A DNA stretch of 64,000 bases from Minisyncoccota bacterium (lineage in GTDB: Bacteria; Patescibacteriota; Minisyncoccia; Phycocordibacterales; UBA1550). Within the stretch, counting starts at the first letter, position 1; each line of letters opens with the position of its first letter. Positions 5,839-62,231 of the stretch are shown here, piece by piece. The stretch lies in the NCBI GenBank assembly GCA_041660105.1, contig JBAZWZ010000003.1, positions 25,527 through 89,526 on the forward strand, written 5' to 3'. The notes below the pieces were generated by a model. That model saw only the letters and a list, made by a program, of their open reading frames with translations, was not told the DNA's origin and ran no database searches. The position numbers and the translations under genes are program-made.

Positions 5839-5873
5839 TATACAACTAACCACCAACAACTAACAACTAACAA
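5839..5873. repeat. Heptanucleotide-repeat module tatacaactaaccaccaacaactaacaactaacaa (CAACTAA variant), immediately upstream of the prgI-like start, with TATAAT in between.
   Basis: Read directly. On the coding strand it reads GTTAGTTGTTAGTTGTTGGTGGTTAGTTGTATAATAGACCT-ATG. Confidence 0.8.
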
Positions 5874-14323: not shown

Positions 14324-14559
14324 GTATACCCCCACACCTACTTTTTGCATAGTAAGTTATACACAGAAATGTATTTAGAGAACAACCGTCCTAAATACAT
14401 AGTGTGGTGGCGACGTAAAAGTAGGTGTGGGGGTGTACCCCCTGCCCAGTTCTCTTGCCTACTTTTTGCATAGTAAGTTATACACAGAAATGTATTTAGA
14501 GAACAACCGTCCTAAATACATAGTGTGGTGGCGACGTAAAAGTAGGTGTGGGGGGTATA
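14324..14559. repeat. Composite palindromic repeat of 1.7 units. The TIR is GTATACCCCCACACCTACTTTT, followed by a 70-bp core, the inverted TIR, a linker, and a second core plus inverted TIR.
   Basis: Read directly. 14324..14438 is TIR-core-TIR'. 14457..14559 repeats the core and right TIR. The whole block recurs in inverted orientation at 18555..18787. Confidence 0.85.
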
Positions 14560-20788: not shown

Positions 20789-20850
20789 GCACAAAATACA
20801 AGAGGCGCCGAGCACCAGTACTGGTGCTCGGCGCCTCTTGTATTTTGTGC
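20789..20850. terminator. 62-bp perfect palindrome (30-bp arms), probable intrinsic terminator for the 97-aa gene.
   Basis: gcacaaaatacaagaggcgccgagcaccagtactggtgctcggcgcctcttgtattttgtgc read directly, between the 97-aa gene stop and the helicase start. Confidence 0.6.
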
Positions 20851-24180: not shown

Positions 24181-25230
24181 TTGCTTTTAGTTGGCGTTTT
24201 TTTGTTTTTCCCTGTTTCAAAAGCCAGCGCATTTGGTCCTTCTGACCTCATTAGCTGGTTTTTCTCAACACCCGCATCGGCCTCAGAGGAAGTACTTGCG
24301 CCTCAAGTTTCAAGAATTGACGACAATTTCCTCGATAGTAAAGGAAATCCAAATCCAGCCCAGACAAATGCTGGCTTTTCTATGGATGATAAGGCTTTTT
24401 CTTCAGAAACTGGCCCTTCGGGGACCATCGCAGACGTGGAAGCGAATGACCACCAAGGGAAAATTAGTCTTTATGTTGTTCACAAAGGAGATACGCTTGC
24501 GCAGGTTGCCAAAATGTTTGAGGTAACCGTGGAAACTATCCTTTGGGCAAACAATCTTACAAGTGGAACAAGTCTCTATGAAGGACAATTGCTCGATATA
24601 TTGCCAGTAGATGGCGTGCAATATGTGGTTAAAAAAGGAGATACCATTCAGGGAATTACCAAGCAGTACAAGGGCAAACTCGACGAAGTAATGGAGTTCA
24701 ACGATATTGAGGTGGGGCAGAAGCTCTCTGTTGGTGAAATTATCATTATTCCAAATGGTAAAAAAGTATCAGCATCAGCGCCTGTGTCCGAAAACATTGC
24801 AATTCTTTCGAAACCTTCAGTTGCTGGGTATTACACGCATCCAGCTCCCGCCGCAACACGAAGATCGCAAAATCTCCACGGCCGTGTTCACAAAGGTGTT
24901 GATTTTAGTGGACCAATAGGAACACCCGTATATGCAGCAGCAGAAGGTGTGGTAATCCAGAGCCAGTTTACGTCATCGTATTGCGGACGCGGTTGTTTCG
25001 GCGATTATGGAAACAATGTTTGGATTAAGCACCTAGATGGCTCCATCACGGTTTATGCACATTTGAGTGCAGTTTATTTCAAAAAAGGTGTAAGTGTTAT
25101 TAAAGGACAGCAGATTGGTGAAATGGGAAACACTGGCAGGTCAACGGGCTCACACCTTCACTTCGAAGTTCGCGGAGCAAGCAATCCCGGACAGTATGGC
25201 AATGGTTTTAATCAAGGGTGGGGTAAGTAG
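24181..25230 (+). CDS. Secreted LysM(x2)-M23 family peptidoglycan endopeptidase.
   Basis: LysM: YVVHKGDTLAQVAKMFEVTVETILWANNL and YVVKKGDTIQGITKQY...VGQKLSVGEIIIIP. M23: HKGVDFSGPIGTPVYAAAEGVV, HLDGSITVYAHLS, GNTGRSTGSHLHFEV. TTG start as in the track. Confidence 0.85.
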   Translation: MLLVGVFLFFPVSKASAFGPSDLISWFFSTPASASEEVLAPQVSRIDDNFLDSKGNPNPAQTNAGFSMDDKAFSSETGPSGTIADVEANDHQGKISLYVVHKGDTLAQVAKMFEVTVETILWANNLTSGTSLYEGQLLDILPVDGVQYVVKKGDTIQGITKQYKGKLDEVMEFNDIEVGQKLSVGEIIIIPNGKKVSASAPVSENIAILSKPSVAGYYTHPAPAATRRSQNLHGRVHKGVDFSGPIGTPVYAAAEGVVIQSQFTSSYCGRGCFGDYGNNVWIKHLDGSITVYAHLSAVYFKKGVSVIKGQQIGEMGNTGRSTGSHLHFEVRGASNPGQYGNGFNQGWGK

Positions 25231-25240
25231 GGAGGGGCGG

Positions 25241-25340
25241 AATATGGGATTTGGAATATAGAATATGGAAGAGAAACGCATGGGGCCAAAGGCCTCATGC
25301 GTTTCTTCTAAATCCCAAATCCCATATTCTAGATTCTATT
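25241..25340. terminator. Nested palindromic bidirectional terminator between the convergent M23 peptidase and comM genes.
   Basis: ggaatatgggatttgg...gaagagaaacgcatggggccaaaggcctcatgcgtttcttc...ccaaatcccatattc read directly. Confidence 0.55.
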
Positions 25341-28331: not shown

Positions 28332-28433
28332 TGCGTATATTATAACGTGTATTGTGACGACTATACAAGCGGTGACGTGCAAAATAAAAGGCAATCACGA
28401 AAGTGATTGCCTTTTATTTTGCACGTCACTGTG

Positions 28434-29825: not shown

Positions 29826-29892
29826 GATTATAGTATAGCGCGCGCAGGGCTCGATGCTTCGCATCGAGCCCTGCGCGCGCTATACTATAATC
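29826..29892. promoter_or_regulatory. 67-bp perfect palindrome (32-bp arms, 3-nt centre) in the divergent intergenic region, ending exactly at the recombinase ATG.
   Basis: gattatagtatagcgcgcgcagggctcgatgc-ttc-gcatcgagccctgcgcgcgctatactataatc read directly. The next three bases are the ATG of the xerC/D-like gene. Confidence 0.7.
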
Positions 29893-53653: not shown

Positions 53654-53917
53654 ATGGTTGAAGTAATTGGGTGTAAGCGTGTTCAGACTGCACATTCTGA
53701 ATACCTCCTTACTCTTGTCAGAGTTGAGGGGAAACTCAAGTGCATTTGTCGGAAAACCGCGGACCTTTCTAATGGAAAGCAATCAGCGCTCCCCGTTGGT
53801 TGGAAATGCGAAATAACAAAGCTTGCCCTTGAAAAAGGAAAGCGAATGCACCTCGTTGGAGATATTTTCTCAAGCACGGTAACGCGCATTGAAGATGTCC
53901 CATTGACCAAAAACTGA
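53654..53917 (+). CDS. Small hypothetical protein (87 aa), Cys-containing.
   Basis: RBS gacaggagaattcagATG; CxxVQ...CICRK...C motifs. Confidence 0.45.
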   Translation: MVEVIGCKRVQTAHSEYLLTLVRVEGKLKCICRKTADLSNGKQSALPVGWKCEITKLALEKGKRMHLVGDIFSSTVTRIEDVPLTKN

Positions 53918-53930
53918 AAGGAGAAACGAA

Positions 53931-54386
53931 ATGAAAACAGAAGTTCCTTTGTGGGGCACTGCTCTTACGAGTTTCGCAGTGTTGTTTGCGGTGGGGTTTT
54001 ACAATTTCGGGTTCACTGGCGCGATTGGGTTTTGTTGGTGTGTAATCGGGCGAATCATTGCGATTGCGCTTACTCTGGTGGCACTCGTAGCACTCGTCTG
54101 TGCTCTCGCTGTTGCTGTCTATTCTTTTGTGGAGGGGTTCAAACGTGTACGGGGCGAAAGACACGAATGGTACTTTGTAAACAGGCTTTGTTGCTCGTTC
54201 GTCTTGGTGGCGTGGGGGTTCCTGTTCTTACATATATCTTCGGAATATCTGTGGGTACCTTCCATCTTACCTGACACTATGAGCATATGTGCTCTGTGGG
54301 CGGTTTATTGGAAAATATATCTCGTCGCACTGCTCGTCTCCCTTACGATAAGGTCTTGGAACAAAAAGTGGTGTGGGGATTGGTGA
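53931..54386 (+). CDS. Small polytopic membrane protein (151 aa, about 4 TM).
   Basis: RBS aaaggagaaacgaaATG; hydrophobic helices LTSFAVLFAVGFY, IIAIALTLVALVALVCALAVAVY, SFVLVAWGFLFL, ALWAVYWKIYLVALLVSL. Confidence 0.5.
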   Translation: MKTEVPLWGTALTSFAVLFAVGFYNFGFTGAIGFCWCVIGRIIAIALTLVALVALVCALAVAVYSFVEGFKRVRGERHEWYFVNRLCCSFVLVAWGFLFLHISSEYLWVPSILPDTMSICALWAVYWKIYLVALLVSLTIRSWNKKWCGDW

Positions 54387-54492
54387 AATTCTCCCACAGT
54401 GCAAAGCGGCTTCGCGAGAAGCCGCTTTTTATTTTGTATAGACCTAAAGCATTCTCTATATAGAAATATTTTGTTATACTAACAATGAACAG

Positions 54493-54588
54493 GTGACCAA
54501 TGACACCGCTTTCGCGGACAAGTGACTTGGAAACTTTTTGCGTCGCGAAAAGTTTCCGTCAAATGTTAATTGTCAATCGTCAATTGTC
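54493..54588. promoter_or_regulatory. pilB upstream module: the conserved box ACACCGCTTTCGCGGACAAGTGAC, the palindrome GGAAACTTTTTGCG-TCG-CGAAAAGTTTCC, and degenerate TCAATTG/TCAGTTG heptads.
   Basis: Read directly. The architecture is the same as the modules at the 5' ends of the three pilin genes. Confidence 0.7.
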
Positions 54589-54597
54589 CCACCCCCC

Positions 54598-56337
54598 ATG
54601 GCCGTCAACAACAAACAACTTAAAGAATTTATCGAAGACTCTGGTCTCGTGCCCCGCACGGAGCTCGAGGAGATAGATAAGCGTGCAGCAGAGACAAAAG
54701 TTTATCTTGGGAACGTGCTCGTATCTGAGGGGAAAATTTCTGAAGATGACTTGCGTCGCACTGAGGCGTACATCCTCGGCATTCCTTTCGTAAATCTCAA
54801 ATCACAAAAAATTGATTTTGAAGTTTTGTCGCTCATCCCTGAGCCTATCGCGCGCAAGCACAACATCGTCGCTTTCAAAAAAACAGAAACATCTCTCGAG
54901 GTCGCGATGCTCGATACGGATGACCTCGCCGCAATAGAATTTATAAAAAAGAAAGTTGGATTGAAGATCCTCCCGCGACTCACTGACAAGGAGTCCATCA
55001 CGGGCGTACTCCTCCAATATCAAAAAAGTCTCAAGGAGGAATTTGGAGATATTATTGAGAAAGAGGCGAGCGGGCTCAAAGAAGGAGAAGAAGATCAAAG
55101 CGAGGAGGATTTGAAAAAGCTCGCGCAAGATTTGCCGGTGGTAAAAATTGTTGATACGCTCCTCAATCACGCCATCATCCAAGGAGCATCAGATATTCAC
55201 ATCGAGCCTCTTGATACAGAAGTGGTGATTCGTTATCGCATCGACGGTATTCTCCATGATGCAATGACACTCCCAAAGAGTGCGGCGTCGGGTATTGTCG
55301 CGCGTGTGAAGGTTCTCTCAAACTTAAAGCTCGACGAAAAGCGTTTGCCTCAAGACGGACGTTTCAAGATAGACTCAGGTGGTGAGAAGGTTGCGTTCCG
55401 TGTGTCGACGCTCCCTGTGTACTATGGAGAGAAGACCGTTATGCGTCTTCTTCGTGAGACGTCGGAGGGATTTTCGCTCGAAGGGCTTGGCTTCCATGGG
55501 AAGGGCCTCGAGCGTATTCACGAGGCGACGAAGCAACGCGTCGGGATGATCCTCGCTACAGGACCTACGGGGTCTGGTAAGTCGACAACACTTTATACTA
55601 TTCTCGACCTTGTGAATGAGCCCGAGGTGAACATTTCTACTATTGAAGATCCTATCGAATATCAAATGAAGCGCGTGAATCAAACGCAAGTGAAATCAGA
55701 AATCGGCCTCACGTTTGCAAATGGACTTCGTACTCTAATGCGTCAAGACCCAGACATCATTATGGTGGGGGAAATCCGCGACACCGAGACGGCATCGCTC
55801 GCGGTCAACGCGGCTCTCACCGGTCACCTCGTGCTCTCGACACTCCACACCAACTCAGCTGCAGCATCGATGCCACGTCTCATCGATATGGAAATCGAGC
55901 CGTTCTTAATTGTTTCGACCGTGAATGTTATCATCGGACAGCGTCTCGTGCGCAGGCTGACTGCGACAAGAGACAAATATTTCTTGAATGCTGACGAGCT
56001 TGCTATCCTCGGGAAATCAGTGAACCTCGACCGCATTATGCAAGTGATGAAAGATGAAAAGCTCTTGGCTCCGACTGCCGAGTGGAAGGATGTACCTTTT
56101 TATCATCCAAAAAAGTCAACGGAATCAGAGGACGGTTACAAAGGCCGCGTGGGTATCCACGAAGTTATGAAAATGTCCGCAGCGATCCGCACACTCGTGC
56201 TCAAGGGCGCGACAGCATCGGAAGTGGAAGAGCAGGCAAAGAAAGAAGGAATGACGACGATGATTGAGGACGGGATTATTAAGGCGTCGCAGGGGATTAC
56301 GACCATAGAAGAAGTCTTGCGCGTAGTCTCCGAATAG
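54598..56337 (+). CDS. pilB: Type IV pilus assembly ATPase PilB (GspE family).
   Basis: N-terminal T2SSE_N domain; Walker A ILATGPTGSGKSTTLYTIL; Asp/His boxes; tetracysteine-less CPR-like C-terminus. Start set to MAVNNKQ (54598). Confidence 0.9.
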   Translation: MAVNNKQLKEFIEDSGLVPRTELEEIDKRAAETKVYLGNVLVSEGKISEDDLRRTEAYILGIPFVNLKSQKIDFEVLSLIPEPIARKHNIVAFKKTETSLEVAMLDTDDLAAIEFIKKKVGLKILPRLTDKESITGVLLQYQKSLKEEFGDIIEKEASGLKEGEEDQSEEDLKKLAQDLPVVKIVDTLLNHAIIQGASDIHIEPLDTEVVIRYRIDGILHDAMTLPKSAASGIVARVKVLSNLKLDEKRLPQDGRFKIDSGGEKVAFRVSTLPVYYGEKTVMRLLRETSEGFSLEGLGFHGKGLERIHEATKQRVGMILATGPTGSGKSTTLYTILDLVNEPEVNISTIEDPIEYQMKRVNQTQVKSEIGLTFANGLRTLMRQDPDIIMVGEIRDTETASLAVNAALTGHLVLSTLHTNSAAASMPRLIDMEIEPFLIVSTVNVIIGQRLVRRLTATRDKYFLNADELAILGKSVNLDRIMQVMKDEKLLAPTAEWKDVPFYHPKKSTESEDGYKGRVGIHEVMKMSAAIRTLVLKGATASEVEEQAKKEGMTTMIEDGIIKASQGITTIEEVLRVVSE

Positions 56338-56614
56338 GCCTTCCAATATTGAGCGATTGCGTCGTTGTGATGCGTACAATCTCCGTCACCGTACGTCATG
56401 TACGTTTCCGTCGATTGTCCTTTCACGCCTTGCACTCGTCTCAATATTGAAAGGCCTAGATTGAGTACATATTAAAGGAAAGGGAGGGATTGCCTACGGC
56501 AATCCCGCTCTTTCTGTGTTTGTAGTCTGTATGTCAACGGCTCATTTGGGCGGAAATGAGCCGTTGAGTCATTGCACTTCGCTATTTTTTGCGCGATAAT
56601 AGAAGAAGCATATT

Positions 56615-57829
56615 ATGCCTAAATTTAAATACAAAGTACGGGAACTTTCAGGGAAGATTACCGATGGCGAGATGGAGGCTGTCAATCGTTTTGCTGTGGC
56701 TTCTGACTTGAGGAAGTCAGGAAAGTCCGTTGTCTCTGTCGAGGAGGTGTCAGGGGGAATCGTTATTGATATGGAAACCATCAATGCGTTTCTTTCAAAG
56801 GTGAAGATCCAAGAGCTCATTGTGTTTGCGCACAACCTCTCCTCAATGATGAAAGCAGGACTCGCTCTTTCGCGCGGGCTTTCTATTCAAGAACGACAAA
56901 CCAAAAATTTTGCACTCAAGAAAACATTGAAGTCGCTGATTGATGAAGTGAGTAAGGGTGCAACCCTCTCGGTAGGAATGGCGAAATTTCCAAAAGTTTT
57001 TTCGCCGATATTCATCGCGATGGTGCGCGCGGGAGAGGAGTCGGGGCAACTCTCCGACACCCTTCTCGTAGTGGGGGACCAGCTTGAGAAAAGCTATCTT
57101 TTGAAAAAGAAAATCAAAGGCGCGATGATATACCCATCTGTTGTTATCTCGGTGCTCCTCATCATCGCAGTGCTGATGTTTATCTTTGTGGTGCCGACAC
57201 TTACCGCAACGTTCAAAGATCTCAATACGGCACTGCCAACGAGTACAAAAGTGATTATCTGGATTTCTGACACGCTCGCAAATCATCTTATGTTGTTTGT
57301 TCTTGCGGTCGCTGTTGTTGTCGTTTCGTTTATTGTTGCTCTCCGTACGAAGCCTGGACATCGAGCGTTTGAGTTTGTATCGCTTCGTTTGCCTCTCATT
57401 GGAGATATGGTCCGTCAGTCAAACGCCGCTCTCGTATCGCGCACACTCTCGTCGCTCCTCTCATCAGGTGTCGATATGCTTGAGGCTATCAATATTACCA
57501 AGGATGTTGTACAAAATTCTTTTTTCAAAGAAACGCTTGCCCTTGCTGCTGAGCGTGTACAGAAAGGTATTCCACTCTCGTCTGTCTTTAAAGAAGGCGA
57601 CGTGTACCCAATCCTCGTGGGCGATATGATCGAGGTGGGTGAGGAGACGGGAAAACTTTCTGAGATGCTTCTCAACCTCGCGCTCTTTTACGAAAACGAA
57701 GTGAACGAGGCGACGAAGAACCTATCGACGATTATTGAGCCGCTTCTTATGGTGTTCATTGGAGCGTCGGTTGGGTTCTTTGCTATTTCAATGATTTCCC
57801 CAATGTACTCGGTGATGAGCAATGTGTAG
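56615..57829 (+). CDS. pilC: Type IV pilus inner-membrane platform protein PilC (GspF family).
   Basis: MPKFKYKVRELSGKITDGEMEAVNRFAVASDLRKSGKSVVSVEE; two T2SSF repeats; three TM helices. 404 aa. Confidence 0.85.
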   Translation: MPKFKYKVRELSGKITDGEMEAVNRFAVASDLRKSGKSVVSVEEVSGGIVIDMETINAFLSKVKIQELIVFAHNLSSMMKAGLALSRGLSIQERQTKNFALKKTLKSLIDEVSKGATLSVGMAKFPKVFSPIFIAMVRAGEESGQLSDTLLVVGDQLEKSYLLKKKIKGAMIYPSVVISVLLIIAVLMFIFVVPTLTATFKDLNTALPTSTKVIIWISDTLANHLMLFVLAVAVVVVSFIVALRTKPGHRAFEFVSLRLPLIGDMVRQSNAALVSRTLSSLLSSGVDMLEAINITKDVVQNSFFKETLALAAERVQKGIPLSSVFKEGDVYPILVGDMIEVGEETGKLSEMLLNLALFYENEVNEATKNLSTIIEPLLMVFIGASVGFFAISMISPMYSVMSNV

Positions 57830-57845
57830 CCGCGCGAAGCGCGGC

Positions 57846-57993
57846 GACAACTGACCACTAACACCGCTGCGCGGACAACTGACAAGAATGCAAAATACAC
57901 AACTGACAATTAACAAAGAACAACTGACAATTAACCAACAGATTTTCGCTACGCGAAAATCTGCCGTCAGTTGTCAGTTGTCAGTTGTCAGTT
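57846..57993. repeat. Pilin-1 5' module: the ACACCGCTGCGCGGACAACTGAC box, CAACTGA-type repeats, the palindrome CAGATTTTCGC-TAC-GCGAAAATCTG (57929..57953), and (GTCAGTT)x4 (57956..57985).
   Basis: Read directly. It overlaps the start of the pilin-1 ORF. Confidence 0.85.
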
Positions 57994-58433
57994 GTTCTCT
58001 GCGTCGGGGGTACACCCTCCTTGAGCTTCTCGTTGTCATCGCCATCCTCGGCCTCATAATGGCAATAACTATCCCTTCCTTTTCGGAGTTTCGACAAAAC
58101 AGCGCTTTGAACGCCGACACAATGAATGTCATAACGCTTATCAACAGAGCACGACTTCTCTCAGTGTCTGACAAAGGAGATAAACAATACGGCATTTATC
58201 TATCCTCTACTTCATCGATTTTGTTTGCGAGTTCAACCTTTGCAAGTTCCGCAACATCAACAAGAGAAACATATACATTGAGCAGTGGGATAACTATGTC
58301 AGGGACTGCTTCGGAAATTGTATTTGCAAAGGTTACCGGCGTTGCAAGCACGGCAGCAACCACAACCCTCCTCGGCACGACCTCAAGCACAACAATATTA
58401 ATATACCCAACGGGTATCGCTACTATTAAATAA
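57888..58433 (+). CDS. Type IV prepilin-like protein 1 (class III signal G|YTLLE plus a hydrophobic helix), with an unusually long repeat-encoded leader.
   Basis: ...SVVSCSLRRG|YTLLELLVVIAILGLIMAITIPSF. The leader MQNTQLTINKEQLTINQQIFATRKSAVSCQLSVVSCSLRRG is encoded by the heptad/palindrome module. An alternative in-frame TTG would give an 11-aa leader. Confidence 0.7.
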   Translation: MQNTQLTINKEQLTINQQIFATRKSAVSCQLSVVSCSLRRGYTLLELLVVIAILGLIMAITIPSFSEFRQNSALNADTMNVITLINRARLLSVSDKGDKQYGIYLSSTSSILFASSTFASSATSTRETYTLSSGITMSGTASEIVFAKVTGVASTAATTTLLGTTSSTTILIYPTGIATIK

Positions 58434-58450
58434 GGAGTAGAATATAATAA

Positions 58451-58594
58451 GAACAACTGACAACTGACAACTGACACAAAACAAAATGCAACAAAAACAA
58501 CTGACAACTGACAAAGAACAAATTACACACAAGCAGCGGATTTTCGCTACGCGAAAATCCGCCGTCAGTGGTCAAATGTCAGTTGTCAGTTGTG
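58451..58594. repeat. Pilin-2 5' module: (CAACTGA)x3, then (CAACTGA)x2 inside the start of the ORF, the palindrome CAGCGGATTTTCGC-TAC-GCGAAAATCCGCCG (58534..58564), and degenerate GTCAGTT repeats.
   Basis: Read directly. Confidence 0.85.
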
Positions 58595-60108
58595 CTCGCG
58601 CTACGCGCGGCTTTGGCCTCGTAGAAATAATTGTCGCCGCATCTATCCTTTCAGTCTCGATGCTCGCCATCTCCACTTTTTTCCAGTCGACGCTCAAGAT
58701 GAGTAGAACCATCGAAACGCAAAACCAATCGAACTACCTTCTCGAGGAAGGGGTTGAGGCTGTTAAGATTTTTCGTGATATGAGTTATGCTAATAACATT
58801 CTCAAGATAGCGACGTCTTCCCCGAGCTATTTTGTTTGGAACAGCACAGGTTCTACCTGGGCTACCTCGACCGTGAACGCTCTTATTGATGGCAAATATG
58901 AACGCAAAGTCACCTATGAGGATGTATTGCGCGACAACACAACGCACGATATTTCCACATCGACATCAGGGACCACTTACGATCCCAATGTGCGCCTCGC
59001 GACAGTATCGTTGTCATGGCTGTCAGGGACAACAACCGCAGGGCTCCTTTCTTCATTGGGAACTATTGCGATAGGGTCAGGAAGTAGTAACACTACTGAA
59101 TCAGGGATAGTTGTTTCTCCAGATGGCAAATACGCATACGCACTAAGAAGCAATGCTAACCTGGTATATATGTATAGTGTCAGTACAACCACAGGAGCTT
59201 TGATTGCGCTCGGGACTCCCACGGTTGCCACGGGAACAACACCAAAATCATTGATCGTATCACCTGACGGAAAGAATGTGTATGTTGCCAACTTCGGCTC
59301 CAACAATATTACTCGATATAGTCGCAATGTAAGTACGGGGGAGCTGTCATCTCTCGGGACTTCTTCCACGGGCTCATCGTCGGGGCCAACTTCAATTATC
59401 ATTTCACCAGACGGGTTGTCGGTGTATACATTGGACGATACCGCAAATAATATTTACAAATACACGCGCACGAGTTCTGGCGGACTAAGCTCGGGTGGTG
59501 CAGCAATTACGGTTACGATCACGTGTCCGTGTGGGTTCGCTATTTCTCCCGATGGCAACTCCGTATACTCAGTTGCTTCTGCGGGGACTGATGTATTTTC
59601 TCAATTTACACGTAGCACGAGCACGGGTGCCCTCTCGAGCAAAGTCGCCGTATCGCTGGCTACTAGCACGGCTCCATATTTTGGCGTCGCTGTTTCTCCT
59701 GACGCTTCTTTTGTGTATGCAACAAACAACGCAAACGACAGTGTTTCAATGTATAGCCGCGCCACGAGCACGGGGGCTCTCACGCTTCTCAGTCCTGCTA
59801 CTGTAGCCACAGGTGATCAGCCTCTGGGGATTGCCATCTCTCCCGATAATTTCTCTGCGTATGTGGTAAACGCTGGCAGTAACACGATTTCACAGTTCAG
59901 CCGTAATGTTACTACGGGGGTTCTTACTCCACTAAGTACTGCTACTATTGCGACAGACTCCATCCCAAACACAATAGCAAATACTCCTGATGGCCATTCA
60001 GTGTATGTGATAAATAGGTCGAGCGCCCTGATTTCAATGTATAGTCGTGACCCTGGGTTGACTGTTAAGACCATACAGACCTATATAACGAATATTTTTA
60101 CTAATTAA
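58486..60108 (+). CDS. Type IV prepilin-like protein 2 fused to a 7-bladed YVTN-type beta-propeller (candidate pilus-tip adhesin).
   Basis: Leader ...MSVVSCARATRG|FGLVEIIVAASILSVSM. Seven repeats of the form (V/I)SPDGxxxYVxNxxxNxIxxYxR (e.g. VSPDGKNVYVANFGSNNITRYSR). Confidence 0.7.
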   Translation: MQQKQLTTDKEQITHKQRIFATRKSAVSGQMSVVSCARATRGFGLVEIIVAASILSVSMLAISTFFQSTLKMSRTIETQNQSNYLLEEGVEAVKIFRDMSYANNILKIATSSPSYFVWNSTGSTWATSTVNALIDGKYERKVTYEDVLRDNTTHDISTSTSGTTYDPNVRLATVSLSWLSGTTTAGLLSSLGTIAIGSGSSNTTESGIVVSPDGKYAYALRSNANLVYMYSVSTTTGALIALGTPTVATGTTPKSLIVSPDGKNVYVANFGSNNITRYSRNVSTGELSSLGTSSTGSSSGPTSIIISPDGLSVYTLDDTANNIYKYTRTSSGGLSSGGAAITVTITCPCGFAISPDGNSVYSVASAGTDVFSQFTRSTSTGALSSKVAVSLATSTAPYFGVAVSPDASFVYATNNANDSVSMYSRATSTGALTLLSPATVATGDQPLGIAISPDNFSAYVVNAGSNTISQFSRNVTTGVLTPLSTATIATDSIPNTIANTPDGHSVYVINRSSALISMYSRDPGLTVKTIQTYITNIFTN

Positions 60109-60109
60109 T

Positions 60110-60228
60110 ATGAAAAAACAATTGACATGAAACAACTGACAACTGACAAAAAACAATCGACATGGGCCCAGCGGATTTTCGCTACGCGAAAATCCGCTGT
60201 CAGTCGTCAGTCGTCAGTTGTCAGTTGT
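60110..60228. repeat. Pilin-3 5' module: (CAACTGA)x2, the palindrome CAGCGGATTTTCGC-TAC-GCGAAAATCCGCTG (60169..60199, a perfect 14-bp stem), and GTCAGTC/GTCAGTT repeats.
   Basis: Read directly. Confidence 0.85.
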
Positions 60229-60735
60229 GCGCGTACCCGCGCCTTCACCCTCGTTGAGATGATCATCTACGCAGCTATTTTTTCATTCATCTCCATCGTT
60301 GCGGTCAATGGAGTCATCGTGTCGATGAAGTCATTTTATAATATTCGTCTTTCTCAAAATATAAATCAGTCTGCGACGGTCGCAATGGACCGTATGGCGT
60401 ATGAGATTCGTAATGCATACAATATTGACAGCACAAACAGCACCCTCGGGACAAGCCCAGGCAGACTTACGTTGCTCACAGAAGACGCTAACGGGAATAG
60501 CACTACCGTTGAGTTTTATGTTATTGCAAATCAACTAAATATGAGGGTAGGCGGGGTAGATCAGGGACCGCTTCTTGTGAAGACATCCATATTGACCAAT
60601 CTTATTTTCCTGCCAATCACTACGCCAAATTCTAAGGCGGTAAAAATAGAAATGACTGCGCAAGATTCGCGCCAGGATGCTACAAAAACAGCAAAGTATT
60701 ATGATACAATAGTATTGAGGGGTTCGATCCACTAA
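60127..60735 (+). CDS. Type IV prepilin-like protein 3 (pseudopilin-like).
   Basis: Leader MKQLTTDKKQSTWAQRIFATRKSAVSRQSSVVSCARTRA|FTLVEMIIYAAIFSFISIVAV. 202 aa. Confidence 0.65.
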   Translation: MKQLTTDKKQSTWAQRIFATRKSAVSRQSSVVSCARTRAFTLVEMIIYAAIFSFISIVAVNGVIVSMKSFYNIRLSQNINQSATVAMDRMAYEIRNAYNIDSTNSTLGTSPGRLTLLTEDANGNSTTVEFYVIANQLNMRVGGVDQGPLLVKTSILTNLIFLPITTPNSKAVKIEMTAQDSRQDATKTAKYYDTIVLRGSIH

Positions 60736-60747
60736 TTTATTATATTT

Positions 60748-62124
60748 ATGCCCAAGAATAATCAATACACTGTCTCATACAAACGTGGCGCAGCGGTCAT
60801 AACGGTAGTTTTGTTCTTTGTAATTATTGCCACAACCGTTTTACTTGGGGTATCGTCTCCAGTTGTAAGCGAATATAAAACTGCGCGCGATCTCGGTAAT
60901 TCAAAGAGTGCGTACTATCTGAGCGAGGCCGGACTCGAGGATGTTATGTATCGAACAATGAAAGCAATAGGGATAACTTCCCCTGTCATCCTCACGCTTG
61001 GGGGCAATATTGCTACGACGACGGCGACAACAGTGAGTTCGAGCGAAGTGACAGTTTCATCAGTGGGGGATGTGAAGACCAACATCCGCAAGATTGGCGT
61101 GACACTTTCGACAGGAGTAGGAAATGAATTCTTTTACGCACTCCAAGCTGGAGGGGGCGGGATAAATATGGCAACAAGTTCAGTTATCAATGGCAACGTA
61201 TTTTCAGACGGGCATGTTTGCGGGGCAGGTATTGGAAATACTTATTGTGACACAGCAGATTCAAACGGAATAACTGAGCAGAGTACGATAACAGGCACGG
61301 TGGTTTCTCGTGGGACAACAGGCCTCAATGGAACTATAAATAGAATTATAAACACAATAGAAGGAGCTTCAATGCATGCGGGGAATATTACAAACGCGTT
61401 TATTATGGGAAGTCCATATTGCACTACAAATTATAATTCAAGTCCGCCTGGGTGCGAGACGCTTGTTGCTCAGCCACAAGCAGACGCGCCAATTTCAGAT
61501 GCCGATATCACTGCATGGAAAAACGCAGCAATTGCTGGGGGGAATGAAGAGTGCGACGGGGCTGCCTATACAATAGCTGAAGACGCAACGGATTTGGGCC
61601 CCAGAGTAATTCCTTGCAATCTGGTTATTGACGGAAGCAGTGGCACGGACACTGTTACTCTCAAGGGACCTGTTTGGGTAAAGGGAAATATAACCATAAG
61701 GAGAAGCCTTATTATTAAAGTTGATCCAGCGCGCACAGGGCAGAGTATGGTGATGATAGCGGACAAGGAGTCTGATCATACCAATAGTAGCAGGATAATA
61801 TTGGAAGGCAATTCCAATTCAAGAGTTTTTGATGGAGCAGGAGAGAATTCGTGGGTTATGCTACTTTCTCAAAATGATAGTGCTTATAACAGTGGCGCGG
61901 TCATAGCAATCGATGCCCAAGGGAACACAAGTGGAGATGTGATCCTTATGGCACTAAAAGGGCAAGTCCAACTTTTCGATGCTTCAGTAGCTAGTATCAC
62001 CGCGTACTGGATATCAATCCTCGCTGACGGAGTTGTAAATTATTCGATGGGCATGCAGAGTGCACTCTTTTATTCTGGACCCGCTGGCTCGTGGAATACA
62101 ATGGATTGGAGGTTGGGACAGTAA
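60748..62124 (+). CDS. PilX-N-like pilus assembly/minor pilin protein with a large Gly/Thr/Asn-rich C-terminal domain.
   Basis: RGAAVITVVLFFVIIATTVLLGVSSPV resembles the PilX N-terminal TM segment. No G|FTLxE site. 458 aa. Confidence 0.5.
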   Translation: MPKNNQYTVSYKRGAAVITVVLFFVIIATTVLLGVSSPVVSEYKTARDLGNSKSAYYLSEAGLEDVMYRTMKAIGITSPVILTLGGNIATTTATTVSSSEVTVSSVGDVKTNIRKIGVTLSTGVGNEFFYALQAGGGGINMATSSVINGNVFSDGHVCGAGIGNTYCDTADSNGITEQSTITGTVVSRGTTGLNGTINRIINTIEGASMHAGNITNAFIMGSPYCTTNYNSSPPGCETLVAQPQADAPISDADITAWKNAAIAGGNEECDGAAYTIAEDATDLGPRVIPCNLVIDGSSGTDTVTLKGPVWVKGNITIRRSLIIKVDPARTGQSMVMIADKESDHTNSSRIILEGNSNSRVFDGAGENSWVMLLSQNDSAYNSGAVIAIDAQGNTSGDVILMALKGQVQLFDASVASITAYWISILADGVVNYSMGMQSALFYSGPAGSWNTMDWRLGQ

Positions 62125-62126
62125 GA

Positions 62127-62207
62127 ACAACTGACATCTGACAACTGACAACTGACGCGGGAGAAAATACGGGCGGAACCTTCGGTTCCGCCCGTATTTT
62201 CGCACCC
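62127..62207. repeat. Heptad tract acaactgacatctgacaactgacaactgacg, followed by a terminator hairpin (gaaaatacgggcggaaccttcggttccgcccgtattttc) at the 3' end of the pilus locus.
   Basis: Read directly, between the PilX-like stop and tpiA. Confidence 0.8.
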
Positions 62208-62231
62208 TTATTCCTGTGATATAATAAACGT

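Follow-up and report, generated by a model that had tools for sequence, protein, structure and literature searches.

Short tandem repeats are known from phase-variable tracts in surface genes, such as the CTCTT repeats in the signal-peptide region of Neisseria opa and the 7-bp repeats of Haemophilus hmw, and from cyanobacteria, whose short tandemly repeated repetitive (STRR) sequences are tandem heptanucleotides dispersed in intergenic DNA without a known link to pilins or to in-frame translation. Here we describe a heptamer-based element in the type IV pilus locus (54.5-62.2 kb) of a 64,000-nt stretch of a Minisyncoccota genome (contig JBAZWZ010000003.1), hereafter the window. The locus comprises pilB, pilC, three genes for proteins with an N-methylation motif (pilin-1, -2 and -3) and a PilX-like gene, followed by tpiA and pgk. 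Each pilin gene begins with a module made of CAACTGA units (the sense heptads), a palindrome and an array of the complementary unit TCAGTTG. Such modules belong to a class of elements, combining heptamer repeats with a hairpin, that some Paceibacteria (Parcubacteria, near Ca. Yonathbacteria) carry at the boundaries between cistrons. We lean towards reading the pilin copies as a heptad-repeat hairpin element that is tolerated in frame in the cleavable prepilin leader and has cis effects on the mRNA. Within this explanation, the part that makes the module an in-frame, tolerated member of a dispersed heptad/hairpin repeat class is quite probable, while a biologically meaningful cis-regulatory effect is put forward only tentatively.

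As in opa and hmw, the length of the unit is not a multiple of three, and the repeats lie in the signal- or leader-coding part of genes for surface structures. Unlike those tracts, the window arrays are short and have an inverted layout, and neither copy-number polymorphism nor an out-of-frame allele was seen among the compared strains. With the cyanobacterial STRR they share tandem heptamers, but classical STRR units have other sequences.

Arrays of TAACTGA heptamers upstream of start codons have been described in Beggiatoaceae, cyanobacteria and Bacteroidetes and proposed to act in translation initiation, with CAACTGA named as a related unit and QLTTDN and SVVSCQL as its translations (MacGregor 2015, Front Microbiol, PMC4679880). 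The window resembles these (N)AACTGA arrays in having a unit that is one base off, in its short tandem arrays of 2-6 units, and in sense arrays lying a few nucleotides before start codons (58454-58474 and 57876-57882 here) in genomes poor in Shine-Dalgarno sites. The fit is partial, as the remaining window units are located inside open reading frames (ORFs) or after a stop codon. Moreover, the window arrays, unlike those described, pair with an inverted complement around a perfect palindrome and extend into the ORF, where they would be translated; the host belongs to Patescibacteria, outside the taxa covered in PMC4679880, and unrelated heptad families fill equal positions in sister genomes. 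An earlier reading of this DNA from its letters alone (the sequence-only reading) was aware of no described equivalent, which no longer stands for the arrays themselves (PMC4679880), whereas for the combined module an incomplete literature search found no published description.

Rickettsia palindromic elements (RPEs) are likewise palindromic repeats of ~100-150 bp that sit in frame within genes and are translated without disrupting the function of the protein (PMC10969869). However, RPEs have a conserved peptide in many unrelated metabolic genes, whereas the peptide of the pilin modules is variable, one copy is read in another frame, coding copies are confined to the prepilin leader, and the arms consist of heptads. 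Further parallels are the small gene-adjacent inverted repeats of the Correia/NEMIS, ERIC, REP/BIME and SPRITE families, which are co-transcribed and form long stem-loops; these elements supply promoters and are targets of RNase III or RNase E, thereby changing mRNA levels (PMC10969869). Similarly, reverse-oriented arrays in the window give TTGTCA −35-like boxes. In contrast to these families, no target-site-duplicated terminal repeats, cognate transposase or RAYT were found here (of transposases, only Y1 was searched), and the pilin copies are coding.

What appears to be new is the layout of arrays and complement around a covarying palindrome, the predicted translation of the module as a prepilin leader of 39-42 residues, and its recurrence with interchangeable heptads in Paceibacteria pilus operons. 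Type IV pili are thought to play a central part in how episymbionts of the candidate phyla radiation (CPR) attach and take up DNA, and to our knowledge nothing is known of how CPR type IV pili are regulated. With a hairpin of about −50 kcal/mol predicted at each pilin cistron start and another in the pilB leader, this locus is an obvious place to seek such regulation. With sense and antisense arrays in one transcript, it is also a natural test case for the (N)AACTGA arrays. For annotation, it would mean that pilin leaders of 30-60 residues in these CPR bacteria are in fact repeat elements, by which start calls and signal-peptide predictions will be misled. More broadly, the cleavable leader may be an entry point for palindromic and tandem repeats into coding DNA, perhaps in other secreted proteins as well.

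Anatomy and reading frame of the pilin modules

The palindrome core GATTTTCGCTACGCGAAAATC occurs exactly three times (57941, 58539 and 60174; 0.03 expected by chance), and CAACTGACAACTGA, with up to two mismatches allowed, 22 times against 0.58 expected. The surrounding direct copies of 142 nt (57884-58025, 58482-58623 and 60117-60258) are 73-75% identical to each other and have identical stretches of up to ~29 nt in common. The leader-coding module of pilin-1 (57888-58010, plus strand; 41 codons, predicted leader MQNTQLTINKEQLTINQQIFATRKSAVSCQLSVVSCSLRRG before Y) has its 5′ arm at 57898-57935, an 11-bp stem around TAC centred on 57951, and a 3′ arm of (TCAGTTG)4 at 57967-57994. In pilin-2 (58486-58611, plus strand; 42 codons, MQQKQLTTDKEQITHKQRIFATRKSAVSGQMSVVSCARATRG before F), the 5′ arm at 58498-58511 and the 3′ arm at 58565-58592 enclose a 12-bp stem centred on 58549; in pilin-3 (60127-60243, plus strand; 39 codons, MKQLTTDKKQSTWAQRIFATRKSAVSRQSSVVSCARTRA before F), the arms at 60133-60146 and 60200-60227 enclose a 14-bp stem centred on 60184. 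These stems agree with the 11-14 bp around TAC reported from the letters alone, as does the TCG variant at pilB (54529-54557). Of the five copies counted at that time, three are near-identical and full (pilin-1, -2 and -3) and one is a diverged, non-coding homologue at pilB, which aligns with the pilin modules across the palindrome and the 3′ arm; the fifth, after the PilX-like gene, proved to be (CAACTGA)4 followed by an ordinary terminator. Nor does a module mark every pilus gene start, since pilC (56615) and the PilX-like gene (60748) lack one. CAACTGA arrays of 2-4 units are located at 57848, 58454, 58498, 60133, 62128 and 51048.

All three pilins fit the type IV prepilin pattern, with a leader ending in G or A, the sequence F/Y-x-L-x-E and a hydrophobic helix, and PF07963 (N_methyl) matches residues 39-61, 39-62 and 36-59 of the pilin-1, -2 and -3 ORFs, respectively. 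The genes had been taken to start inside the module; instead, an ATG precedes it in each case (57888, 58486 and 60127), and the frame is open right through. The resulting prepilin leaders are predicted to be 39-42 residues long, with the N_methyl motif beginning at residue 36-39, and the NCBI annotation has the long forms for pilin-1 and pilin-3. That the pilin modules would be translated as a leader peptide, as their open frames imply, had been overlooked in the sequence-only reading, together with the arrays at 51048-51075 and 5843-5870 and a hairpin at 25230-25335.

Stop codons are avoided throughout these leaders. A pair of perfect CAACTGA units is stop-free in just one of the three reading frames (CAA CTG ACA ACT GAC, encoding QLTTD), which is the frame in use. 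A third heptad would bring an in-frame TGA and is altered in all three copies (CAAAGAA, CAAAGAA and CAAAAAA); unbroken sense runs of three or four perfect units are found only outside ORFs (58454-58474, 62128-62155 and 51055-51075). The complementary unit TCAGTTG is stop-free in every frame, and up to four perfect copies of it are kept. Frame choice, altered third unit and stop-free 3′ arm together argue that the pilin frame has probably been kept open on purpose.

The same holds beyond the window. Nine distinct pilin-associated modules were scored: the three described above, one each from the compared loci L127, L143, L157 and L160, and two from L145. In all nine, the frame opens with an ATG ahead of the palindrome and meets no stop, and the leaders of 28-45 aa differ in length by whole codons. 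The encoded peptide varies among modules (e.g. RIFATRKS, WVFAKRKP, GFSRSENP), and one of the nine has its palindrome read in a different frame, so that openness is conserved rather than the peptide. L160 contains a second pilin-like ORF open through a module, beyond the nine scored. A profile of the three window leaders, run against 1.84 billion proteins, added just two proteins that have a leader of this kind, both of them pilins, in addition to unrelated translated heptad arrays; a word-indexed protein search with the pilin-2 N-terminus gave no candidates.

From the open frames and the cleavage-site context, we infer that the upstream ATG is used and that prepilin peptidase cleaves the long leader. 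Alternatively, the module could be a non-coding hairpin of the 5′ untranslated region (UTR) that controls initiation, the true pilin starts being TTG or ATG codons within the 3′ arm and the leaders of the type MSVVSC...RG. The copies at pilB, at a pilM/N-like gene (L158) and at holB (L138) are clearly 5′ UTR elements, and an internal in-frame ATG in pilin-2, 12 codons before the cleavage site, and an internal TTG in pilin-1 would yield leaders of 11-12 aa as are typical of relatives. Yet pilin-3 offers no ATG, GTG or TTG from the palindrome to the cleavage site and hence cannot be made from a start within the module; pilin-1 of L127 and one L145 pilin equally have none after the palindrome, making three of the nine. 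Furthermore, ATG and open frame are kept over ~100 nt in nine of nine modules even though sense heptads readily create TGA, and indels between copies are always of whole codons. We therefore consider it improbable that the pilin copies are purely untranslated.

Being built of 7-nt units not divisible by three, within the unconstrained 5′ coding part of genes for surface structures, the modules could also be contingency loci, in which slipped-strand gain or loss of units shifts the frame and switches pilins on and off. Units that differ by lineage, their presence or absence among close relatives, and their enrichment in pilus operons would fit such a role. However, the arrays are short (2-5 units), all nine pilin modules of this TTTTCGC type are in frame, the repeat-bearing leaders of syntenic relatives are open from the ATG, and no OFF allele was seen. 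Five L127-species strains that share 98.8-99.8% identity over 2.3-6.5 kb showed zero indels across four arrays, and arrays are identical between L125 and L126, between L143 and L144, and between the window and L121. Phase variation of this kind is thus very unlikely. As a separate observation, L143 and L144 differ by a 76-nt deletion between short direct repeats (L143:9389-9464) in a neighbouring pilin gene that has no module; the deletion frameshifts that pilin, and the two contigs are otherwise identical.

Hairpin folding and stem covariation

Each pilin module is predicted to fold into a single long hairpin, with energies of −47.1 (z −9.0), −49.9 (z −8.5) and −55.2 kcal/mol (z −8.1) for pilin-1, -2 and -3, respectively. 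In the mRNA, the stem-loop would begin 7-13 nt past the start codon. The pilB module folds less stably (−34.1 kcal/mol, z −4.4). The count of the core against chance and the z-scores of −8 to −9 for the long hairpins bear out that the module is a strongly non-random extended inverted repeat. It had likewise been judged not to be an intrinsic terminator, and indeed a terminator reading of the pilin palindromes is ruled out by A/U-rich stems, the lack of a T run on the sense strand and their location inside ORFs. A search of positions 50000-64000 with the Rfam 15 covariance models (E up to 1) returned no match.

Covariation was assessed in 14 modules with extended stems, at the seven stem pairs lying outside the fixed positions of the search pattern (see below). 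At each of the seven, both partners have changed among the modules; 93.9% of cells are paired, compared to 35-52% in slid controls, and the observed score was reached in none of 500 shuffles. For instance, pilin-1 of L127 carries a member of the window's module family (palindrome GTGGGTTTTCGC-GAA-GCGAAAACCCAC, leader MKQLTTNKIFDEWVFAKRKPTVNCFHRG before F), in which paired changes relative to the window keep the stem while the peptide differs. Judging from these alignments, the element stays palindromic even as its sequence and the peptide it encodes drift. This pattern fits an RNA hairpin, a single-stranded-DNA hairpin or a palindrome-correcting mutational process equally well.

Syntenic relatives and wider distribution

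PilC places the organism among Paceibacterota (Parcubacteria) metagenome-assembled genomes near Ca. Yonathbacteria. Our comparison set consisted of ten syntenic loci with the order nusA-pilB-pilC-three pilins-pilX-tpiA and a PilC 72-80% identical to that of the window. Contrary to what a conserved pilus site would show, the orthologous pilin genes of L129 (PilC 80%), L123 (79%), L130 (77%), L161 and L163 lack the module. In these five, the operon has no heptad array and leaders comprise 4-21 residues, far fewer than the 39-42 predicted in the window, most of them canonical (MNRG or MPRSNFRG before F); the exception is pilin-1 of L123, with 21 residues and a small palindromic insertion. Other relatives harbor different repeats at matching places, always in frame: (AAAAGTC)4-5 and (CTTTCGA)4 in L125, inverted GAATATA/ATATTCG heptads in L125, L127 and L162, and AGAATGG/CCATTCC in L127. 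L132 and L123 have, likewise in frame, a G/C-rich palindromic insertion in a pilin leader that duplicates the G-F-T codons. Located at L132:3662-3790, L132:2308-2500 and L123:11220-11290, this insertion has the inverted ends CCCCCCCACCAACTTTT / AAAAGTTGGTGGGGGGG and reads MRNKGFT, 34 aa, GGFTLVEM; it resembles an insertion with target duplication at the cleavage-site codons.

Similar exchanges are seen outside the pilin genes. In relatives, the pilB −10 box (TATACT) lies ~13 nt from the conserved ATGACCGTTAAC start, and the window and L127 have differing heptad-armed insertions of ~105-130 nt (~105 in the window) between the two. The pilB-pilC spacer of L125 also has a heptad-armed insertion, and the terminator after pilX is preceded by CAACTGA, GTCAAAA or TAGTTGA arrays, or by none, depending on the genome.

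These comparisons bear on two roles that the sequence-only reading had raised, namely a DNA operator array (heptad iterons with a palindromic dimer site) for a dedicated regulator and a recombination substrate for shuffling pilin genes. A 17-bp palindrome whose central triplet is free, set between direct and inverted heptads, makes a layout that, we assume, resembles the operators bound by ribbon-helix-helix proteins, and the identical stretches of up to ~29 nt in three copies could support homologous recombination. On the other hand, heptads that are wholly different at matching sites of related genomes are hard to square with a sequence-specific protein; the stem covaries in a hairpin-like manner between unconserved flanks. 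The locus shows no obvious candidate for a regulator gene, pilin number and order are constant in 10 of 10 syntenic loci with no sign of rearrangement, and the module class also occurs at unrelated genes (see below). Both roles have accordingly become highly improbable.

The link to the pilus itself was borne out. Counting strict arrays (at least three units, with no more than one mismatch per unit), five of six in the window fall within the pilus operon, which makes up 12% of the DNA, as do six of seven in L125 (30%) and all four in L127 (30%); binomial estimates for this concentration are p ~1e-4, 3e-3 and 8e-3, respectively. In each genome with heptad arrays, these are thus significantly concentrated in the pilus operon.

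By contrast, a restriction to pilus and type IV secretion loci did not hold. A metagenome scan with a pattern of palindrome core plus heptad arm (TTTTCGCNNNGCGAAAA N5-35 GTYARTTGTYARTTG) identified 27 loci, of which roughly one in three is the start of a pilin gene (in the L127 species, in L143/L144 and L157, and twice each in L145 and L160). The remaining copies flank, or lie in the 5′ leader of, a pilM/N-like gene, holB, comM, recA, a dak-family gene, spoIIIAE, rluB, a zinc-permease gene (znuB) and lipoprotein genes. As in the pilB copy, the 3′ arm ends ~10 nt before the ATG in the copies at the pilM/N-like gene (L158) and holB (L138). With seven dispersed copies in one metagenome in addition to those at holB, comM, recA, the dak-family gene and spoIIIAE, the module class is a dispersed repeat rather than a pilus-specific site. 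No copies were found on viral contigs. The proximity to comM, recA and pil genes had suggested a competence regulon, an idea that was dropped given the copies beside znuB, dak, spoIIIAE, rluB and lipoprotein genes.

In the metagenome with the seven dispersed copies, JGI24705J35276 (L135, L147, L148, L150, L151, L153 and L156), a (CAATTAA)n-armed element of ~130 nt with two internal hairpins is present at seven or more unrelated loci. It shows compensatory hairpin changes and behaves like a miniature inverted-repeat transposable element (MITE) or REP family; its host is probably not a CPR bacterium.

Plain arrays are more widespread still. A genome scan for (CAACTGA)3 found at least 120 loci in cyanobacteria, Planctomycetota, Acidobacteriota, Bacteroidota, Chloroflexota and others, with many in Nostoc, Calothrix and Microcoleus among the matches listed. 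As only one of the 120 matches listed lies near a pilin-like motif, a pilus-specific heptad was rejected. Arrays of at least three CAACTGA units in other phyla show a strong orientation bias: among the matches listed, 71 were classifiable as lying within 80 nt upstream of a long ORF start, 60 in sense and 11 in antisense orientation. This placement is the one described for TAACTGA (PMC4679880), and the scan extends the strongly sense-biased (N)AACTGA arrays to Planctomycetota, Acidobacteriota, Chloroflexota and Patescibacteria.

Alternatively, the element could be a neutral or selfish passenger without regulatory role, its arrays and palindromes generated by replication slippage and template switching beside hairpins or by some mobile mechanism, and persisting wherever they are not lethal, which in such compact genomes would be at cistron boundaries and in cleavable leaders. 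The absence from the closest relatives, the interchangeability of heptad families at one site, the many long perfect palindromes in the window's intergenic DNA, a sense fold that is not favoured over the antisense fold, and the unconserved peptide with a palindrome frame that can differ all speak for a passenger. Against it stand the significant concentration of arrays, built of different heptads, in the pilus operons of three genomes and, among the matches listed, the 60 vs 11 sense bias of plain 5′-leader arrays, which points to an RNA-level role for the sense arrays at least; spanning codons 3-35, moreover, the hairpin of about −50 kcal/mol cannot be physically silent. We regard a pure passenger as unlikely, albeit as the most serious of the alternatives considered.

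Under the explanation we prefer, a tolerated in-frame element with effects in cis, a heptad-armed palindromic repeat would have arrived at the 5′ end of every pilin gene or expanded there. Prepilin peptidase would cut the repeat-encoded leader away and leave the mature pilin unchanged; since the leader is cut off, the insertion survives, and the leader would be a safe harbour as long as the frame stays open. Selection would ask only for an ATG, an open frame and basic residues before a site between G/A and F/Y, all of which are observed. Any action in cis would come from the A/C-rich sense heptads pairing with their complement in a stable mRNA stem-loop, which may slow or condition initiation and elongation and may alter the decay of the pilin cistrons and the pilB leader. 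Of the earlier proposal that an RNA structure controls translation of each pilin, this putative cis effect on expression, which may or may not be adaptive, is what survives.

Several observations weigh against this explanation. In seven of nine modules, a test based on G-U asymmetry found the sense fold to be weaker than the antisense fold, without reaching significance. As the sense fold is not the better one, there is no sign of a selected or optimised sense-strand RNA hairpin, although a weaker sense fold is also what stop-codon avoidance in the 5′ arm would produce. With a start at an internal ATG, TTG or GTG, six of the nine modules would yield a canonical leader of 8-13 aa. The scan pattern was derived from pilin modules, so that the fraction of pilins among the 27 loci is biased upward in a sample biased to relatives. 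The pile-up of different heptad families in several pilus operons is left over by simple tolerance and hints at selection. Finally, no mobility mechanism was found: target-site duplications are lacking, as are a Y1 transposase in the window and copies on viral contigs. The inverted heptad arms are present without a consistent target-site duplication, and the empty sites of L129 and L130 gave no alignable junction. A tblastn search of the window with the Y1 transposase of L123 gave no match below E = 3, other transposase families not having been searched. In the 64 kb of genome at hand, the three full copies and the one diverged copy are all in one operon.

A bolder version would make the modules a translational switch across the Paceibacteria pilus operon, built of heptad/anti-heptad hairpins and turning on pilB and the three pilins together. 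In this scheme, the ribosome, or a factor that binds single strands (for example S1 or a protein with a cold-shock domain), would dock on the sense heptads without needing Shine-Dalgarno pairing, and the complementary arm would mask them until this factor, temperature or a helicase melts the hairpin. We rate such a switch as doubtful. If true, the repeated, sequence-independent build-up of hairpins in pilus operons would represent convergent evolution, and the role of the (N)AACTGA arrays in many phyla would be revealed.

Further features of the locus and the window

The pilB gene (54598-56337; PF00437; ATG at 54598) is preceded by its non-coding 5′ leader module (54487-54597, plus strand) with diverged heptads of the GTCAATT type. 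On the plus strand, this module consists of a small hairpin box (54503-54526), the palindrome GGAAACTTTTTGCG-TCG-CGAAAAGTTTCC (54529-54557) and a 3′ arm of GTCAAAT/GTTAATT/GTCAATC/GTCAATT (54558-54586). As stated in the sequence-only reading, the hairpin box has a counterpart upstream of pilin-1 (ACACCGCTGCGCGGACAACTGAC, 57861-57883, plus strand). The latter lies within the pilC-pilin-1 junction (57829-57887, plus strand), which also contains a mini-hairpin, GCCGCGC-GAA-GCGCGGC, overlapping the stop codon of pilC (56615-57829; PF00482), and the sense heptads CAACTGA and CCACTAA; one CAACTGA (57876-57882) ends 5 nt before the pilin-1 ATG. Upstream of pilin-2, a perfect, non-coding sense (CAACTGA)3 (58454-58474, plus strand) ends 11 nt before the ATG, in keeping with the 5′-leader placement of such arrays in other phyla, and puts TGA in all three frames.

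Behind the stop codon of the PilX-like gene (start 60748) follows a half module (62128-62201, plus strand). It combines an unpaired (CAACTGA)4 with one mismatch (62128-62155) and, in place of a TCAGTTG arm, a terminator (62163-62201, plus strand) with an 18-bp G+C-rich hairpin ending in TTTTC.

Right after the pilB stop (56338-56569) lies an element of ~122 nt with 17-nt inverted ends (GGCCTTCCAATATTGAG / CTCAATATTGAAAGGCC), followed by a hairpin, GGGATTGCC-TAC-GGCAATCCC, with the TAC loop also seen in the pilin palindromes, and then by a further hairpin. The pilB-pilC spacer measures 277 nt in the window vs 42-177 nt in relatives, and the element looks like a separate inserted repeat. Pilin-2 (58486-60108) is 540 aa long; its C-terminal part is a 7-bladed beta-propeller of the lactonase/SGL type, making it a candidate tip adhesin, and the relative L129 has this architecture too.

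Outside the pilus locus, an array of CAACTAA-CCACTGA-(CAACTGA)2 (51048-51075) and a 16-bp terminator hairpin (51088-51122) form a plus-strand feature at 51048-51122, between ppa and an uncharacterised 298-aa gene, both on the minus strand. Another array, of CAACTAA-type heptads, is located at 5843-5870 (plus strand); on the minus strand, it is directly upstream of the TATAAT and ATG of a PrgI-family gene (type IV secretion). Read in reverse, both arrays give −35-like hexamers on the minus strand, TTGTTA (5842-5873) and TTGTCA (51042-51071), 18 nt before TATAAT and TATACT, respectively. At 5842-5873, the minus-strand ATG is 6 nt past the −10 box, so that the PrgI-family gene looks leaderless. 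A second heptad family with a like architecture, GAATATG/GGATTTG heptads, a 16-bp G+C hairpin and inverted heptads (25230-25335), is found between the convergent genes for an M23 peptidase and comM and has a fold of −56.7 kcal/mol (z −7.8).

Elsewhere in the window, a 121-nt unit is repeated 1.8 times with 100% identity (14337-14554). Long perfect palindromes are located at 29826-29892, 43674-43735, 20789-20850, 49696-49758, 28372-28429 and 40832-40887; with arms of 26-32 nt, 100% complementarity and loops of 0-4 nt, they look like bidirectional terminators. Their abundance suggests that this genome makes or keeps perfect hairpins readily.

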